A DNA stretch of 64,000 nucleotides from positions 3,248 through 67,247 of the forward strand of contig JBAXYB010000003.1 of assembly GCA_037127585.1 (NCBI GenBank), written 5' to 3'. This DNA is from Verrucomicrobiota bacterium (lineage in GTDB: Bacteria; Verrucomicrobiota; Verrucomicrobiia; Palsa-1439). The position numbers were made by a program, and so were the translations under genes. This document shows, piece by piece, positions 19,669-60,527 of the stretch; position 1 is the stretch's first letter; each line of letters opens with the position of its first letter. The notes under the pieces were generated by a model that was not told the DNA's origin, searched no databases, and saw only the letters and a program-made list of their open reading frames with translations.

Positions 19669-19744
19669 TGGTGGAGATGAGGGGATTCGAACCCCTGGCC
19701 TCCTCGTTGCGAACGAGGCGCTCTACCAACTGAGCTACATCCCC
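19669..19744 (-). tRNA. tRNA-Ala (anticodon CGC), CCA encoded
   Basis: Cloverleaf by eye: 7-bp acceptor stem with G3:U70 (Ala identity), D-arm GCTCAGTTGGTAGAGC, anticodon stem CCTCG/CGAGG with loop TTCGCAA, T-arm GGTTCGAATCC, 3' CCA. Confidence 0.85.
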
Positions 19745-40181: not shown

Positions 40182-40297
40182 GGCGCGACTTTAACACAGG
40201 GTCAATCGAGCGCAACGGTATTCAAAAGTGTGTTCCGACCGGAAAACAACAAGCCCCGCAATTGCGGGGCTTGTCGGTAATTGGATTGTCGGAAGGA

Positions 40298-46673: not shown

Positions 46674-46825
46674 GACCGACTCTCCTGTGGCGTTGGTTTA
46701 GGTTGCCGCCAGCCTTCTAATGAATTGCTCCCCGGCAGTCAAGACCACCGGAGGGGGCGCCCGGCGCGGATATTTTGGCGTGGCGTTACCGGGTAGGGTA
46801 TTGGATATTCTCCAAGCGACCGACT

Positions 46826-49303
46826 ATGACACTGACTGAGATTCTGCTGAAGAACGCGCGCGAGTTGCCGGACAAGATCGCGTTGGCGATGCGGGTGGGT
46901 TACCGGACCCAGACGCTGTCGTACCGGGACGTTTATCAACGGGCGGCGGGGATTGCCGGCTTTCTCAAAGAGAATGGGCTGACGAAGGGCGACCGGGTGT
47001 TGGTGCTGGCGCCGAATTCGCCGGACTGGATTTGTTTGTTCTGGGGCGTATTGCTCAACGGCAATGTGATCGTGCCACTGAATCTGCAGAGCACACCGGA
47101 GATGGTCGAACAAATCGCGGCGCAGTCGGGCGCGAAGATTTTCTTCCGGCATCACGGGTACCGCCCTCACCCTAACCCTCTCCCGCAAGCGGGAGAGGGG
47201 ATAAGAGTTGTTGATCTCGATAGTCTTCACGAATTGCGGGCCGATACGTGCGCGGATGTGGGCGCGCAGGAGAACGATCTGGTCGAGATCATGTACACGT
47301 CCGGGACGACGGGGCAACCGAAGGGCGTGATGCTGACGCATGGGAATCTACGCGCCAACGTCGAGGCGGTCGCGGCGGCGATGCCGATGGACGGCGGTGA
47401 TACGTTCTTGTCGATTCTGCCGTTGAGTCATGTGTTCGAGCAGACGATTGGGTTTTTGTATCCGTTTCTTGTCACGGCGAAGATCGTGTACGCACATTCG
47501 CCGGCGGCGATTGCAGAGTTGATTCGCGAACATCGGGTGACAACGATGGCGGGTGTGCCGGAGTTTCTGCGGGTATTGCTCACGAAGATCGAGGATCGTG
47601 CGGCTGCCGCCGGCAAGAAGGCGGCGTTTGACCGGATGATGAAGCTCGGTTCGGCGTTGCCGTTTCGGCCGGTGCGAAAACTATTGTTTGCGCCATTGCA
47701 TCGGCGGTTTGGCGGGAAGTTCCGGCGCGTGGCGTCGGGCGGCGCGCCGTTGGATTCGGAGTTGGAGCACCGGTGGAACGCGATGGGTTTTTTCGTGCTG
47801 CAAGGCTATGGGCTGACGGAGACTTCGCCGGTCATTTCGACGAACACGGAGTTTGCTCACCGATTTCGGTCGGTTGGTAAACTTCTGTCGTGCGTTCAAG
47901 TGCGGATTGCCGGCGACGGCGAGATTCAGGTGCACGGTCCGAGTGTCACGCAGGGCTATTACCGGGAAGCGGAGTTGACGAAGGCAGCGTTCACCGAGGA
48001 CGGCTGGTTCAAGACGGGCGACATCGGCGAGTTGGACAAGGACGGCTTTCTGTTTCTGAAAGGCCGCAAGAAATACATGATCCTCGGGGCGGGCGGGCAG
48101 AACGTTTACCCGGAGGATCTCGAAGCGGCGTTGAACAAGCAGCCCGGGATGAAGGACAGCTGCGTGGTCGGCTGGGAACGACGGCCTGGGCAGGTGGAGA
48201 TTCACGCGGTCTTGCTCGGCGCGGACTTGAAGGCGGAGGCGATTGTCGCGGCGGCGAATGACCGGCTCGCGACATATCAACGCATTGCCGGCTGGTCGGT
48301 TTGGCCGAACGACGATTTCCCGCGGGCGGCGACGCGGAAGGTGAAGAAGGAGGAAGTGTTGACATGGTTGAAGGCGCAAGGGCAGGGGGCCGCCGTGTCG
48401 CCGAAAGCCATTCAGCAGGTCACCCCGCTGGTGCGGCTGTTGGCGAGCATCGCGGACGTGGAGGCGCATGAGATTACGGCGACGACCGATATTTTCCGGG
48501 AACTGCCGTTCGATTCGCTGTTGCGCGTGGAGTTGATTGCCGGCATCGAACAGAACTTCGGCGTGCTGTTGGACGAAGGGACGCTCGGCACGTCGCTGAC
48601 CGTGGCGAAGCTGGACGAGTTGATCAAGAAAGCGCCGGTCACAAAGGCGCAACTCGGTTTTAAGGAATGGCCGGTAGCGGGTTGGGCGAAAGCGATCCGG
48701 TGGGTGGGGCAGAAGTTGATCGTCGCGCCGGTGAATTGGGCGTGCCTGGATTTACGCGTGGAAGGCGTGGAGCATCTGCGCGGGTTACCGGTGCCGGCGG
48801 TGTTTATGGGGAATCACTTGAGCTTTCTCGATTCGCTGGCGTTTCTGATGGCGTTGCCGCCCGAAATTCGGAAGCGCATCGGCTTCGCGGCGGCGCTCGA
48901 TGTGGTGTACCAAGAGTTCCGGCAGTTCGCATTTCTCGCGGATTTATTCTTTAACAGCTTTCCTTTCCCGCGGCGGGAAGGCGAGAATATCAAGGCCGGC
49001 TTGGATAGTATGGGGCGGATGTTGGATCGCGGTTTTTCGGTGATGATTTTTCCGGAAGGCCAGATCAGCGTGACCGGCGAACTGCAGCCGTTGAAACGTG
49101 GGACTGGCTTGGTGGCGGTGGAGATGAAATGCCCGATCGTCCCGGTGCGCATTACCGGCACGCGGGAAGTGTTGCCGCTGGGGAAAGTCTGGCCACGGCG
49201 CGGGCCGGTCACGGTGCGGTTCGGTCCGCCGCTGCGGTTCGGCCGGGACGAGACGTACGAGGGCGCGACCGCCAAGGTTGAGCAGGCGCTGCGGGCCTTG
49301 TAA
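46826..49303 (+). CDS. tri-domain acyl-activating protein: AMP-dependent synthetase/ligase + acyl-carrier-like domain + PlsC-type acyltransferase (Aas-like, permuted order)
   Basis: AMP-binding motif MYTSGTTGQPKGVMLTHGNL. 4'-PP-like helix ELPFDSLLRVELIAGIEQNFGV. Acyltransferase HX4D motif GNHLSFLD and FPEG. Contains the in-frame palindromic insert at 47167-47200. Confidence 0.75.
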   Translation: MTLTEILLKNARELPDKIALAMRVGYRTQTLSYRDVYQRAAGIAGFLKENGLTKGDRVLVLAPNSPDWICLFWGVLLNGNVIVPLNLQSTPEMVEQIAAQSGAKIFFRHHGYRPHPNPLPQAGEGIRVVDLDSLHELRADTCADVGAQENDLVEIMYTSGTTGQPKGVMLTHGNLRANVEAVAAAMPMDGGDTFLSILPLSHVFEQTIGFLYPFLVTAKIVYAHSPAAIAELIREHRVTTMAGVPEFLRVLLTKIEDRAAAAGKKAAFDRMMKLGSALPFRPVRKLLFAPLHRRFGGKFRRVASGGAPLDSELEHRWNAMGFFVLQGYGLTETSPVISTNTEFAHRFRSVGKLLSCVQVRIAGDGEIQVHGPSVTQGYYREAELTKAAFTEDGWFKTGDIGELDKDGFLFLKGRKKYMILGAGGQNVYPEDLEAALNKQPGMKDSCVVGWERRPGQVEIHAVLLGADLKAEAIVAAANDRLATYQRIAGWSVWPNDDFPRAATRKVKKEEVLTWLKAQGQGAAVSPKAIQQVTPLVRLLASIADVEAHEITATTDIFRELPFDSLLRVELIAGIEQNFGVLLDEGTLGTSLTVAKLDELIKKAPVTKAQLGFKEWPVAGWAKAIRWVGQKLIVAPVNWACLDLRVEGVEHLRGLPVPAVFMGNHLSFLDSLAFLMALPPEIRKRIGFAAALDVVYQEFRQFAFLADLFFNSFPFPRREGENIKAGLDSMGRMLDRGFSVMIFPEGQISVTGELQPLKRGTGLVAVEMKCPIVPVRITGTREVLPLGKVWPRRGPVTVRFGPPLRFGRDETYEGATAKVEQALRAL
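47167..47200 (+). repeat. small palindromic repeat element inserted in-frame in the acyl-CoA ligase gene
   Basis: CACCCTAACCCTCTCCCGCAAGCGGGAGAGGGG, with a 10-bp perfect stem CCCTCTCCCG/CGGGAGAGGG. Encodes HPNPLPQAGEG inside the ORF. Confidence 0.6.
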
Positions 49304-56554: not shown

Positions 56555-56892
56555 TGGCCGACAACATTTTCGCCAAGATCATCGCCAAGCAGATTCCGGC
56601 AACCATCGTGTTCGAGGACGACCGGGTGCTGGCGTTTCGCGACGTCAACCCGCAAGCGCCCGTCCACATTCTCGTCGTCCCGAAACCGGACATTGCCAAT
56701 GTCAGCGCGACCCGGGATGAAGTGATGCTGGGGCACTTGTTGACTGTGGCGGCGGACATTGCCCGCCAAGAGGGGATTGATTCGACAGGCTACCGGCTGG
56801 TCATAAACAAAGGGCGCGATGCCGGCGAGAGTGTTCCCCATTTGCACGTTCATTTGCTTGGCGGACGTTCCCTGAACTGGCCGCCCGGCTGA
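56554..56892 (+). CDS. HIT family (histidine triad) nucleotide-binding protein
   Basis: MADNIFAKII...VPHLHVHLLGG histidine triad. Confidence 0.85.
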   Translation: MADNIFAKIIAKQIPATIVFEDDRVLAFRDVNPQAPVHILVVPKPDIANVSATRDEVMLGHLLTVAADIARQEGIDSTGYRLVINKGRDAGESVPHLHVHLLGGRSLNWPPG

Positions 56893-58373
56893 TGATTCTC
56901 TTCGAAGATAAGCACCTGCTGGTCGTCAACAAACCGTCCGGCATCAATACGCACAAACCGGACAAGTACACGCCCGACGGCTTGCACGAATGGCTGCTCA
57001 AGCGCGGCCATAAACTTTCCATCCTCCACCGGCTCGACAAGGATACCTCGGGTGTTCTCGTGTTTGGCAAGAGCACGTTGGCGAATCAATCTCTCGCCAA
57101 GCAGTTCGAGAAGCACAAAATCAAAAAGGAATACCTTTTCCTCTCCGCGAGCCGGCCGAAGCGGCACCGGTTTTGTGAGGAAGGACCCAATGAGCAGACG
57201 TGGTTCGAGTACGTGTCGCCGGTGGGCGAGAATCATCTCCTCAAAGCCGAACCCGTCACCGGTAAGACGCATCAGATCCGCCGGCACTCGGCGTATTGTA
57301 AGTTTCCGGTCTTGGGCGACACCAAGTACGGTGACATGCCGGCCCCGCGGCTGATGTTGCATGCCCACCGGATTACGTTTACGCATCCGGCCAGTGGTGA
57401 ACTGGTGACGTTTTCGGCGAGCATACCGGCCGTGTTTGAAGATTTGGATGCGTTGACGGCAGCGCGTGAGTTTCGCGAGCTGTTGTTCGATCCGGCGGAG
57501 ACCAATGCGTACCGGCTCGTGAGCGGGGCGGCTGATGGATTGCCGGACGTGATTGTTGATTCGTATGCCGGTCGGTTTTTTGTGCAGCGGTTGTCGGAAA
57601 CAGCCAAACCCCCTCACCTTAATCCTCTCCCCCGGAGGGGAGAGGAGACCGGCGAGGGGGAGTTCTGCGTGTATGATCAACTCGCAACGAAACAGACGCG
57701 CACGCCGGCCCAGTGCATTCAGGGCGCGGCGGTCGCGGAACGGTTCCCGATCCGCGAGAACGGCGTGACTTATCTCATCAACTTCGGCGAAGGCTTGTCG
57801 ACCGGCATCTTTCTCGATCAACGCGAAAATCGCCGGCGACTCTTGAACATGCCGCTGGCCGGTAAGCGGGTGCTAAATTGTTTTTCATACACGTGCGCGT
57901 TCTCCGTTGCGGCGGCGAAGGCGGGGGCGGTGACGACCAGCATTGATCTGTCGCGAAAGTATCTCGACTGGGGGAAGGAAAACTTCCGCGTGAATAATCT
58001 TGATCCTGAGAAACACGATTTCGTTTACGGCGATGTGTTCGAATGGCTCAGGAAGTTCGTGAAGCGTGGCGACCGGTGGGACATGGTGCTGATCGATCCG
58101 CCGACGTTCGCGACGACGAAGAAAGGCCGGGCGTTTCGGGCGGAGCGTGATTACGAGGAACTGGCGGCGTTGGCCATGCCGTTAGTGGTGCCGGGTGGGG
58201 CGCTGTTTTGTTCGACGAATCAGCGGACTTTGTCGCCGGAGAATTTCGAGCGGGCGATTCGGTCGACGGAACGCCAGATTACGGCGCTGGAGTTTGAGAC
58301 GTTGCCTTTTGATTATCGGGTGGCGGAGGGGGAGCACCCGTACTTGAAGACGCTGTGGGCAACCCTGGAATAG
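56892..58373 (+). CDS. fusion of RluA-family pseudouridine synthase and RlmI-like class I SAM rRNA methyltransferase
   Basis: N-terminus: HRLDKDTSGVLVFGKS (RluA catalytic Asp motif). C-terminus: YRLVSGAADGLPDVIVDSYAGRFFVQ and VLNCFSYTCAFS...LIDPPTFA (RlmI/YccW-like). In-frame palindromic insert at 57615-57647 in the linker. Confidence 0.7.
   Translation: MILFEDKHLLVVNKPSGINTHKPDKYTPDGLHEWLLKRGHKLSILHRLDKDTSGVLVFGKSTLANQSLAKQFEKHKIKKEYLFLSASRPKRHRFCEEGPNEQTWFEYVSPVGENHLLKAEPVTGKTHQIRRHSAYCKFPVLGDTKYGDMPAPRLMLHAHRITFTHPASGELVTFSASIPAVFEDLDALTAAREFRELLFDPAETNAYRLVSGAADGLPDVIVDSYAGRFFVQRLSETAKPPHLNPLPRRGEETGEGEFCVYDQLATKQTRTPAQCIQGAAVAERFPIRENGVTYLINFGEGLSTGIFLDQRENRRRLLNMPLAGKRVLNCFSYTCAFSVAAAKAGAVTTSIDLSRKYLDWGKENFRVNNLDPEKHDFVYGDVFEWLRKFVKRGDRWDMVLIDPPTFATTKKGRAFRAERDYEELAALAMPLVVPGGALFCSTNQRTLSPENFERAIRSTERQITALEFETLPFDYRVAEGEHPYLKTLWATLE
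57615..57647 (+). repeat. second copy of the small palindromic element, in-frame in the RluA-RlmI fusion gene
   Basis: CACCTTAATCCTCTCCCCCGGAGGGGAGAGGAG, with a 9-bp stem CCTCTCCCC/GGGGAGAGG. Encodes HLNPLPRRGEE in the same relative frame as the copy at 47167. Confidence 0.6.
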
Positions 58374-60081
58374 ACGCCCACGGAATCTGCGCCAAGAGTG
58401 GTTGCGCGGCCCCGATGCCACCGGCCAGCGCGACGATGTAGGTCAGCGGTTTCCCAATCGGCGAGTACGTGGTCGTCGTTGAAGCCTTGGCGCCTTCCAC
58501 GGTGGTGGAAACATACGGCCCGAGGTGGCGCATGATGGTCTCCGGTTGCGGGAGCTTGTTCCAGGCGATGAAACTGTCGGTGTTGGTGGCAGTGGCGTGC
58601 GCGAGCGTGTAGAGGCCGCCCATGACTTTTCGCAGATCACAGTACGTGAACGATGAGCCTCCGGTCGGAACGCGTTGCGCGACGCTCTTGAACTCGGCGG
58701 AGTCGGCCAGCGACGTCGTGCCGGACTTGATCTGGGTGATGATTTCTTTCGCGTAATCGGGCGTCAACGCGAGGACGAAGTATTTTTCCGTCAACACGTA
58801 CGTCGGCGCAGCGTAACTGCTCCCGGTGCGGATGACGTGCAAGGTTTCGCCGGCATGCGTGATGTCATCGGTGCGCTCGACGGTCTTCTTGATCGTCTCG
58901 ACAATGGTGTCAAACTTTGTGATCGGGTCTTTCACTTCGGCGACCAACGCGAAGTCAGGGGACCGGGCGCCGGATCGCCAATTGCCGATGTAAGCGACTT
59001 CTGGCCCGAGGTGCGTCAGGAAATCGTCACTGAGCCGTACGCCGGCATCGGAGAGATACTTATCGAGGTCGCCGCCGATTTTCAGGGCCGTGGGATTGCC
59101 GGAGCGGGCGAGGGCTTCCATCAACTTCGTGAAGCCGCCGGCCAGATCAGTCGACTGCACGGCGTACAATGCGGAGTCCCCCGGGGCGACGGCCAGCGTG
59201 CTCTGTTGAATCGGCGGGTCAGGTTGGTGGTCTTTGGAGTACGTGATGATGCTGGAGTCCGTGAGGCCGGCGCCATCGAAATTCACGGCGACGGTGGTCG
59301 CTTGAATGTTCCCGAGACTTTCGAGCATCGGACTGCCTTGGGCGGCCATCAGTAGCAGCATGCCGTATTGACTGAAGAGTTGTTCCATGTTGATGAAGGC
59401 GTGGCCCGCGCTGTTCTTTGGTAAGCGCTGGATGGCGTTTTGGAAACGCATGCTGCCGGCCAACGAGACTGCCTCCGGTAACGCATTGCGAGTGAAGCGG
59501 GTAATCATGTCGCGCATCTGCTCCTCGTCAGTCGTGCCGACTAACAGCGTGCCGAGAAATCCATAGCAGAATTGCGCCGCCGGACTGGCATGCACCACCG
59601 TATAGTCAATGCTCAGATAGTTTTTCTTTTCGAGCGTGGCGGCCGGGTTGTACTTCGCCAGTTGGTGCTCATAAACTTTCAGATATGCGAACGCCTGGAC
59701 CTTGTGCAATTTACAATCGATGCCGACGGCCCCGCCGACCTCGGTCTTCGGAGTCGCGGCAAACCGAGTGATGGCGACGAACACTTCGCCTTGCGGCAAG
59801 GCGAGCGCCTCTTCCCAGCGTTCTTTCTTCAATCCGCCTTGCACTGCCGCGAGTGGCTTCTGAAGGAACGCTTGCACCTCCGGCTCGGCCCACAACGCTG
59901 CCAACGGCGTGCCGCGCAACTGCTCCCGGGCGGCCTGAAAATCCGGTGCGTCCACAAACAGGAGAGTGCTCTCCGGTAACAGTTCAGCGCCGGCGGGAGA
60001 ACGTCCACCCCGATTAAAAATTAGGATGGCGGCGGCGACGATCAACGTCAGCGCGATGAAGATGAGTAAAACTTTTTTCAT
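58279..60081 (-). CDS. hypothetical secreted/membrane-anchored protein (DUF3352-like?)
   Basis: MKKVLLIFIALTLIVAAAILIF N-terminal anchor. ~600 aa with a Pro-rich C-terminal tail. Family assignment is tentative. Confidence 0.45.
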   Translation of the reverse strand: MKKVLLIFIALTLIVAAAILIFNRGGRSPAGAELLPESTLLFVDAPDFQAAREQLRGTPLAALWAEPEVQAFLQKPLAAVQGGLKKERWEEALALPQGEVFVAITRFAATPKTEVGGAVGIDCKLHKVQAFAYLKVYEHQLAKYNPAATLEKKNYLSIDYTVVHASPAAQFCYGFLGTLLVGTTDEEQMRDMITRFTRNALPEAVSLAGSMRFQNAIQRLPKNSAGHAFINMEQLFSQYGMLLLMAAQGSPMLESLGNIQATTVAVNFDGAGLTDSSIITYSKDHQPDPPIQQSTLAVAPGDSALYAVQSTDLAGGFTKLMEALARSGNPTALKIGGDLDKYLSDAGVRLSDDFLTHLGPEVAYIGNWRSGARSPDFALVAEVKDPITKFDTIVETIKKTVERTDDITHAGETLHVIRTGSSYAAPTYVLTEKYFVLALTPDYAKEIITQIKSGTTSLADSAEFKSVAQRVPTGGSSFTYCDLRKVMGGLYTLAHATATNTDSFIAWNKLPQPETIMRHLGPYVSTTVEGAKASTTTTYSPIGKPLTYIVALAGGIGAAQPLLAQIPWASIPGLPTASSSTGAPPPPPDNQKATSQTPAP

Positions 60082-60116
60082 GAGCGCGCGGATGCTATGC
60101 GTCGAACGGGAGGGCG

Positions 60117-60527
60117 TCAAGCTTGCGGCGGGATCGGCGAATGGGTGCCGCGGGTTCGCCAGTAGTATTCGAGGCCCACACTCATGCCGTTTCGATGGGG
60201 CAATGTGAAAATGAAGCCACTGATCAGAGCGCCGACCAACCCATAGAACCAGACTGAATACGGATTATAGACGCGAAAATAGATGATCACGATCAATGGG
60301 AAAATAAACAGTGCGCGGTCGATCAATAGCAAATAAGCCCAGAGATCGCCTTGGTTCTGGAGATATTGCAGGTCGCACGCAGGACACCGGTCATGCAATG
60401 TGATCCACTTCTTGAACAATGCGCCGGCACCACACCGTGGGCATTTCCGCTGCGCCCCACGCCAGAGTACCGACTTTAATGTTGGATGCGTGTCCTGCAC
60501 TCGCCAATTGTAACATGGTTGCCCCAT
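60117..60527 (-). CDS. DUF983 family membrane protein
   Basis: CPRCGAGALF...CPACDLQY zinc-ribbon followed by two TM helices, the DUF983 architecture. Confidence 0.65.
   Translation of the reverse strand: MGQPCYNWRVQDTHPTLKSVLWRGAQRKCPRCGAGALFKKWITLHDRCPACDLQYLQNQGDLWAYLLLIDRALFIFPLIVIIYFRVYNPYSVWFYGLVGALISGFIFTLPHRNGMSVGLEYYWRTRGTHSPIPPQA

Follow-up and report, generated by a model that had tools for sequence, protein, structure and literature searches.

Two in-frame palindromes assigned by sequence to the BoxC/PIT/TM_ECO triplex-motif family in conserved enzyme genes of a Verrucomicrobiota bacterium

The DNA analyzed herein is a stretch of 64,000 nucleotides (nt) from the metagenome-assembled genome (MAG) of a Verrucomicrobiota bacterium (assembly GCA_037127585.1, contig JBAXYB010000003.1, positions 3,248 to 67,247), and this whole 64-kb stretch is called the window. 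Two protein-coding genes of the window each contain a short palindromic element within the open reading frame (ORF). Host gene 1 encodes an acyl-CoA ligase fusion and holds site 1. Host gene 2 encodes a fusion of an RluA-type pseudouridine synthase with an RlmI-type S-adenosylmethionine (SAM) methyltransferase and holds site 2. The genes and the parts of both elements are listed in Table 1. By sequence and architecture, both sites are copies of the BoxC/PIT/TM_ECO intrastrand-triplex motif.

The pattern CCTCTCCC-N6-GGGAGAGG occurs at exactly two sites in the window, 47177-47198 and 57624-57645. When the gap was set to N4-10, there were 2 matches, and 0.00 were expected from 100 dinucleotide-preserving shuffles of the window. 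No further copy of the CCTCTCCC 8-mer lies in the window beyond sites 1 and 2, and the left arm CACCYTAAYCCTCTCCC is also matched there only at these two sites. A preliminary description of this DNA had placed the elements at 47167-47200 and 57615-57647, where the sequences are indeed present, and had suspected that a third copy may be absent from the window, which agrees with the count of exactly two. It had given them a size of about 33 nt; the actual extents are a 36-nt core (47164-47199) and a 52-nt palindrome (57609-57660). The architecture, taken there for a two-part hairpin, has three parts, and the defining third strand of 9 nt, CCCTCACCC, had been noticed only as a conserved left arm. 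The search pattern suggested at that time, CCTCTCCC(N)3-5GGGAGAGG, returns 0 matches because six bases, not four, separate the 8-mers.

Table 1 Coordinates of the two host genes and of the elements within them (positions of the window).
Feature	Position	Strand	Description
Host gene 1	46826..49303	+	AMP-binding / PP-binding / acyltransferase fusion, 825 amino acids (aa); Pfam; 100% match to NCBI Verrucomicrobiota MAG protein
Site 1, complete 36-nt type-A triplex motif	47164..47199	-	CCCTCTCCC GCTTGC GGGAGAGGG TTA GGGTGAGGG on the G-rich strand
Site 1, complement of third (Hoogsteen) strand	47164..47172	+	CCCTCACCC
Site 1, second loop	47173..47175	+	TAA (TTA on the G-rich strand, 'type A' as defined in PMC4666352)
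Site 1, pyrimidine stem	47176..47184	+	CCCTCTCCC
Site 1, first loop	47185..47190	+	GCAAGC; the outer G/C pair leaves a 4-nt loop
Site 1, purine stem	47191..47199	+	GGGAGAGGG
Host gene 2	56892..58373	+	RluA-type pseudouridine synthase + RlmI-type SAM methyltransferase fusion, 493 aa; Pfam PseudoU_synth_2 + Methyltrans_SAM
Site 2, two-tier palindrome, 52 nt, BoxC-like double motif	57609..57660	.	CCCCCTCACC TTAA TCCTCTCCCC CGGA GGGGAGAGGA GACC GGCGAGGGGG
Site 2, main 36-nt type-A motif	57611..57646	-	TCCTCTCCC CTCCGG GGGAGAGGA TTA AGGTGAGGG
Site 2, second, imperfect motif, central hairpin in common	57623..57658	+	third strand CGGCGAGGG; 7/9 valid triads; 3 substitutions

The outer bases of the N6 spacer pair, which gives a stem of 9-10 base pairs (bp) and a 4-nt loop. 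The G+C content of both elements is about 70%, and their lengths are 36 and 52 nt. On the plus strand, the calculated fold energy was -22.7 kcal/mol for site 1 and -39.9 kcal/mol for site 2 (z = -3.7 and -4.8 versus shuffles). The minus-strand fold of site 2 reached -45.4 kcal/mol (z -6.0). The outer stem of site 1 was folded on the minus strand only, via G-U pairs. The plus strand of site 1, which is the sense strand, is the C-rich complement of the triplex motif. Similarly, the second loop of site 2, TAA at 57620-57622, reads TTA on the G-rich strand and is type A. In the main motif of site 2, one triad is changed from C-G*G to T-A*A on all three strands.

The family was found by a full-text literature search with the block sequences. 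Its earlier literature is said to include work by Bachellier et al. in the 1990s and by Hoyne et al. in 2000. BoxC/PIT/TM_ECO was defined by Holder et al. 2015 (PMC4666352) as 5'-CCCTCNCCC N3-6 GGGNGAGGG N3 GGGNGAGGG-3', and membership allows at most one mismatched triplet. As single-stranded DNA, the motif folds to a hairpin with a Hoogsteen third strand; a second loop of TTA makes it type A and one of CCG type B, and an isomorphic class II triad such as T-A*A is permitted as a 'mixed stem' (PMC4666352). The same study counted 3,610 copies in 262 proteobacterial genomes and described inverted pairs of type A and type B in E. coli (PMC4666352).

Site 1 shows 0 mismatches to the published pattern, CCCTCNCCC-N6-GGGNGAGGG-TTA-GGGNGAGGG. 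Site 2 differs from it by 3 substitutions, all within one triplet (C-G*G to T-A*A). Valid triads were 9/9 on the minus strand at both sites (C-G*G / T-A*A / T-A*T at site 1). When a 42-nt query of site 1 was used at a coverage of at least 80%, it was matched at 40,261 places in 5,043 of the 5,426 complete E. coli genomes, with 80-97.4% identity. The same query was matched at 1,824 places on 619 plasmids of Klebsiella, Rhizobium, Sinorhizobium, Azospirillum, and others. A plasmid copy of Pantoea sp. At-9b is identical to site 1 over 40 nt. The claim of the preliminary description that both elements belong to one repeat family is thus upheld, since both fit BoxC/PIT/TM_ECO. Published descriptions of this motif in Verrucomicrobiota, or of its translation within conserved enzymes, were not found in the open-access literature, and this is weak evidence of absence because only open-access papers were covered. 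The 3.7 kb beyond the window, taken from a contig of the European Nucleotide Archive (ENA), contained 0 further copies. In 13 orthologous loci of other Verrucomicrobia (about 250 kb), 2 copies were present, one between convergent genes and one at a contig end.

The conservation of the third strand was followed in environmental copies. Viral contigs were scanned with the pattern CTCACC-N5-CCTCTCCC-N4-8-GGGAGAGG, which gave at least 141 matches. The consensus among the matches listed is sharply bounded and asymmetric, with three blocks. The search patterns leave one triad free, namely the last base x of CCCTCACCx, the first base y of yCCTCTCCC, and the base z after GGGAGAGGz. Among the viral-contig matches listed, the 138 non-redundant copies had C/C/G in 113, T/T/A in 11, and another combination in 14. 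In 125 metagenomic type-A copies, the corresponding counts were 96, 22, and 7. C/C/G or T/T/A together therefore account for 118/125 metagenomic copies and for 124/138 viral-contig copies among the matches listed. The metagenomic C/C/G and T/T/A copies carry 54 and 17 different loop sequences, 71 different loops together, and they lie on contigs with 38-64% G+C. Because x and y are not Watson-Crick partners, their coupling is not explained by the hairpin alone, and a triplex predicts it. The third strand thus covaries with the hairpin in environmental copies.

The identities of both host genes given in the preliminary description were confirmed by the Pfam domains AMP-binding, PP-binding, and acyltransferase in host gene 1, and PseudoU_synth_2 and Methyltrans_SAM in host gene 2. 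Its statement that both elements lie in the same frame and leave the ORFs undisrupted also stands, as the peptides RPHPNPLPQAGEG and PPHLNPLPRRGEETGEGE are found inside long ORFs. Its placement of both inserts in inter-domain linkers did not stand, because both lie within domains according to Pfam and AlphaFold2 (AF2). The structure check that it proposed placed the inserts in coil between beta-strands, with reduced confidence in the AF2 models. In the alignment of orthologues that it also proposed, the orthologues examined are without the inserts.

In host gene 1, the site 1 insert corresponds to residues 113-125, within the AMP-binding N-domain (Pfam match 10-380). Between HHGY and L(E/D)S, orthologues have 12 residues and the window has 18, which is a net gain of +18 nt or +6 aa. 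The 36-nt unit stands where orthologues have AKPPGG, encoded by GCG AAG CCG CCG GGC GGG in the closest one, L003 (81% aa identity), which is without the insert. The AF2 model has a mean predicted local distance difference test (pLDDT) of 87, and the insert is a coil with pLDDT of about 70 between strands 106-109 and 128-131 (the model numbering starts at 46823, so 1 is to be added). A search of Joint Genome Institute (JGI) metagenomes for filled or empty site 1 alleles, with conserved flanks and a 40-70-nt gap, gave 0 matches.

In host gene 2, the site 2 insert corresponds to residues 240-257 and lies inside the domain that precedes the methyltransferase fold, between two strands. It is carried by 0/119 orthologues of this gene. 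At the DNA level, the four closest orthologues have nine codons versus 21 in the window, which is a net gain of +36 nt or +12 aa. The closest orthologue, L001, has 88% aa identity and is without the insert. Despite this protein identity, the nine remaining flanking codons at site 2 have almost nothing in common with the orthologues. Entry of the whole 52-nt palindrome with the loss of about 16 host bases therefore fits better than a clean 36-nt insertion. The AF2 model has a mean pLDDT of 92 and a predicted template modelling score (pTM) of 0.90. Residues 234-258 form a coil between strands 228-233 and 259-265, and the two blocks of lowest confidence, 76 and 70, coincide with the insert. An ENA contig (assembly ERZ4222710) matches the window with 100% identity along 14,779 nt, a stretch that includes site 2. 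The 3' end of host gene 2 overlaps the 3' end of a convergent DUF3352-like gene (58279-60120, minus) by about 95 nt, 58279-58373, and the same overlap was called in the orthologous loci L001 and L146.

Either insert was found in 0 of about 130 orthologues of the two genes. As the inserts are absent from every orthologue examined, both were gained in this Verrucomicrobiota MAG lineage. They may be called mobile in the sense of presence in the window and absence from orthologues. Both insert stretches are length-variable among orthologues. Across 135 copies among the matches listed, the conserved stretch extends beyond the search pattern by 4 nt on the left and by 3 nt on the right, and these copies showed no target-site duplication or consistent flanking direct repeat.

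Both copies lie on the same strand and in the same frame, inside long plus-strand ORFs with Pfam domains on either side. The type-A unit has stops in 3/6 frames, and the open frames read HPNPLP..GEG, LTLTLS..RERG, and PLSRLRERVRVR. Because only three frames are open, two copies would share one frame by chance in about one case out of three. All open frames are represented among the verified in-frame copies elsewhere. As a separate observation, the GC skew is positive in 13 of the 16 4-kb blocks of the window (1-64000), and the cumulative skew climbs from 0.05 to 1.19. The plus strand is therefore probably the leading strand, and the two host genes have the same orientation. In both motifs, the G-rich strand, which is the one capable of the triplex, would then probably be the leading-strand template as well as the transcription template.

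Copies inside genes were also sought outside the window, and intragenic calls were accepted only with Pfam or PHROG support. Many long spanning ORFs in GC-rich contigs (for example L005, L025, L074, and L104) were rejected as spurious low-complexity translations. On plasmids, 52 of the 53 annotated rows were intergenic. The exception is an alpha/beta hydrolase gene of Azospirillum brasilense plasmid p4 (L148, 862-1662), which lies between bioF and bioD and translates the motif as LTLTLSPGGRGD. An upstream stretch in the same hydrolase, HANPLPPGERTARRAGEGG, looks like a second, decayed copy of the motif.

Of the metagenomic type-A copies, 96 had 300 nt or more of sequence on either side. ORFs that extend for at least 100 codons in both directions span 8 of these 96, and 4 of the 8 lie in Pfam-confirmed genes. 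In an ABC transporter (contig L238, 4721-4755, JGI metagenome), the copy lies between the membrane and ATPase domains, and the insert includes the peptide HLNPLPRRGEE, which it shares with the window. This copy has the exact site 2 core TTAAT with the loop CCGGAG and is read in the same frame (PHLNPLPRRGEE). In an E2 acyltransferase, the in-frame copy lies in the linker after the lipoyl domain, and in a TPR-dynamin protein it lies between two modules. A DUF255 thioredoxin-like protein also contains an in-frame copy. The exact site 2 core was seen on four further contigs (L204, L205, L222, and L242), and the contigs with this core may come from relatives of the window organism. Similarly, viral contigs contain in-frame copies in a Mu portal protein, a Mu transposase, and a tyrosine integrase. 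Copies were found in 7 cultured phage records, which is almost none, and the many IMG/VR matches are therefore probably host-like or prophage DNA. In-frame copies are a general minority, about 4-8% of the metagenomic sample, and several of them lie in true inter-domain linkers.

Grouped copies were observed as well. On IMG/VR contig 3300009156_000057 (L056, 2101-2194), two inverted motifs about 25 nt apart lie in frame in a 1,561-aa ORF, which encodes ...SPQPSPPVGERVSGAQRPGSLSPIGGEGQGEG... and has a DarB-like PHROG match just upstream. Three motifs lie within about 800 nt in L236 (about 310-1095), and two lie 20 nt apart in L267 (6544-6633). The clusters on metagenome contigs suggest local amplification.

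Taken as a whole, it is very probable that sites 1 and 2 are BoxC copies that were gained in this lineage and kept in frame in tolerant loops. A copy would have been pasted in at the DNA level, with no target duplication and with a few host bases replaced. The candidate routes would be template switching associated with repair or replication, or short-patch recombination with another copy. Units of about 38-52 nt would account for the net gains of +18 and +36 nt. The copies now present in genes would be those that survived selection, because their length is a multiple of three, their frame is one of the three type-A frames without stops, and their loop tolerates a Pro/Gly-rich peptide. Purine-motif triplexes are not formed by RNA (PMC4666352), and since the C-rich strand is the sense strand, the mRNA would carry the hairpin only. 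This reading implies no function for the host protein.

Several points weigh against this reading. The E. coli copies were described as always intergenic and without association with mobile elements (PMC4666352), and 60/60 evenly sampled E. coli places lay in stretches without an annotated feature, that is, intergenic. That 2/2 copies are intragenic in the window, with n=2, is unexpected if the metagenomic rate of about 4-8% holds here. The exact junctions and the apparent replacement of host bases rest on orthologues with 82-85% identity in DNA, because an empty-site allele was not found in any very close relative. A common origin of the ENA and NCBI contigs from the same reads is possible. 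The triplex was shown in vitro for E. coli oligonucleotides only and was not detected in vivo (PMC4666352). Finally, the covariation of the free triad could partly mean two ancient subfamilies instead of repeated compensatory change.

It is also possible, with a clearly lower probability, that BoxC is an actively propagating cross-phylum cassette, as the Pantoea copy with identity over 40 nt would fit. Each copy would be written into the DNA as a short patch made from a template, in place of a few bases. Turn-coding stretches of the form CCN-CCN...GGN-GGN (Pro-Pro...Gly-Gly), which are similar to the stems of the cassette, would be preferred, and the sequence of the cassette would be held by triad compatibility. 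If so, in-frame copies would be a recurrent source of new protein loops and linkers, and in some lineages, this one included, genes would rank among the main targets of insertion.

Mobilization in trans of REP/REPIN-type repeats by a RAYT (Y1 HUH) transposase encoded elsewhere is unlikely because the tag of these repeats is absent. Like REPs, the elements are small palindromes of high G+C content; site 2 has the form of a REPIN-like inverted doublet, and the family is multi-copy in many genomes. However, a GTAG or CGTC tetranucleotide marks the REP super-families (PMC3733652), and neither of these nor their complements occur in the two elements or within 10 nt of them. The conserved unit is also asymmetric, with three blocks and not two.

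Marginally less probable still is the co-option of the inserts, in which the mRNA hairpin would delay translation between folding units or the protein would make use of the Pro/Gly/Glu loop. The very stable hairpins (-22.7 and -39.9 kcal/mol), the same strand and frame in both copies, and the intragenic position of 2/2 copies versus roughly 4-8% elsewhere would agree with such a role. However, the inserts are missing from all orthologues, including those at 81-88% identity, and the shared frame is expected in about 1 of 3 cases by chance. The other in-frame copies use all open frames and lie in unrelated proteins. The intact nucleotide motif points to recency or to a constraint at the DNA level, not to selection at the protein level.

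Chance or convergence of two Pro/Gly-rich loops in palindromic GC-rich DNA would agree with the Pro/Gly-rich turns that the replaced orthologous stretches also encode (AKPPGG and LPSLPG), but it is extremely improbable given zero matches expected in shuffles, the 40-nt identity of site 1 to a proteobacterial copy, and a third strand that is conserved without a coding rationale. An assembly or binning artefact, with repeat-induced chimeric joins, is just as improbable; the source is a MAG and assemblers can be misled by short repeats, but typical reads and k-mer paths are longer than a repeat of 36-52 nt, the same orthologous gene runs on in frame to either side of each site, and a second public contig is identical.

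BoxC/PIT/TM_ECO has been known for about 30 years and was described as strictly intergenic and unlinked to mobile DNA. The two sites provide filled-versus-empty comparisons in conserved genes, and these are direct evidence that new copies arise. According to the junctions from the orthologue comparison, new copies arise without target duplication, and a few host bases are lost in the process. The range of the motif is not limited to Proteobacteria, and its sequence outside them is essentially unchanged. In a few percent of the environmental copies, translation gives a Pro/Gly-rich loop or linker. The in-frame intragenic setting is unusual for an otherwise mostly intergenic repeat, and the phenomenon is general but uncommon. 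Current views are not overturned; what is added are junctions and a natural test set for the movement of the repeat and for the cost of non-B DNA in genes.

Compared with known systems, the window elements have in common with published BoxC/PIT/TM_ECO copies the 9-N6-9-N3-9 layout, the block sequences, the TTA second loop, and up to 97-100% nucleotide identity. Inverted double motifs occur there and at site 2. The differences are the Verrucomicrobiota host versus the proteobacterial genomes of PMC4666352, the translation of both window copies in frame versus the intergenic E. coli copies, and the T-A*A triad variant at site 2.

In Rfam, both sites align over the whole model of RF01762, whalefall-1 (47163-47199 and 57610-57646, minus), with 17.4 bits versus a gathering score of 37. 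The hairpin UCUCUCC/GGAGAGA followed by AGGGUGAGG is the same; the score is below the threshold, however, and the sites are not members. To judge from this alignment, whalefall-1, a metagenomic 'RNA motif', may be related to the triplex motif and really be a DNA repeat. Above the gathering threshold, the only Rfam match in the window is a tRNA at 19672-19744 (minus, 76 bits), and permissive thresholds added whalefall-1 alone.

REP, BIME, and REPIN repeats are hairpin repeats as well, short and GC-rich, present in multiple copies and at times arranged as inverted doublets. Unlike these, the window elements carry neither a GTAG nor a CGTC tag, they have an asymmetric third block, and a cognate transposase is not known for them. 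In addition, REPs are extragenic by definition, whereas the window elements are intragenic. Miniature inverted-repeat transposable elements (MITEs) such as Correia/NEMIS or ERIC are also small, non-autonomous repeats that can be tolerated inside ORFs, and some of them occur in frame (Delihas reviews, PMC3184786). The window elements are much shorter, and identity with MITEs was rejected on the ground that there were no terminal inverted repeats beyond the motif and no target-site duplication among the 135 copies listed.

The Rickettsia palindromic elements (RPEs) are reported, by Ogata et al. in 2000, to lie in frame in unrelated conserved genes. RPEs are roughly 100-150 bp long and AT-rich, and they are known from Rickettsia only. 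The window elements differ in being 36-52 nt long and GC-rich, with a three-block triplex design that occurs across phyla and with no sequence relationship to RPEs. The preliminary description had drawn this comparison, which holds for the phenomenon of in-frame insertion and not for the family, as the latter is the already described BoxC/PIT/TM_ECO. In both systems, a palindromic repeat lies in frame in unrelated conserved genes, and a peptide is added at a tolerated surface position while the protein is not destroyed.

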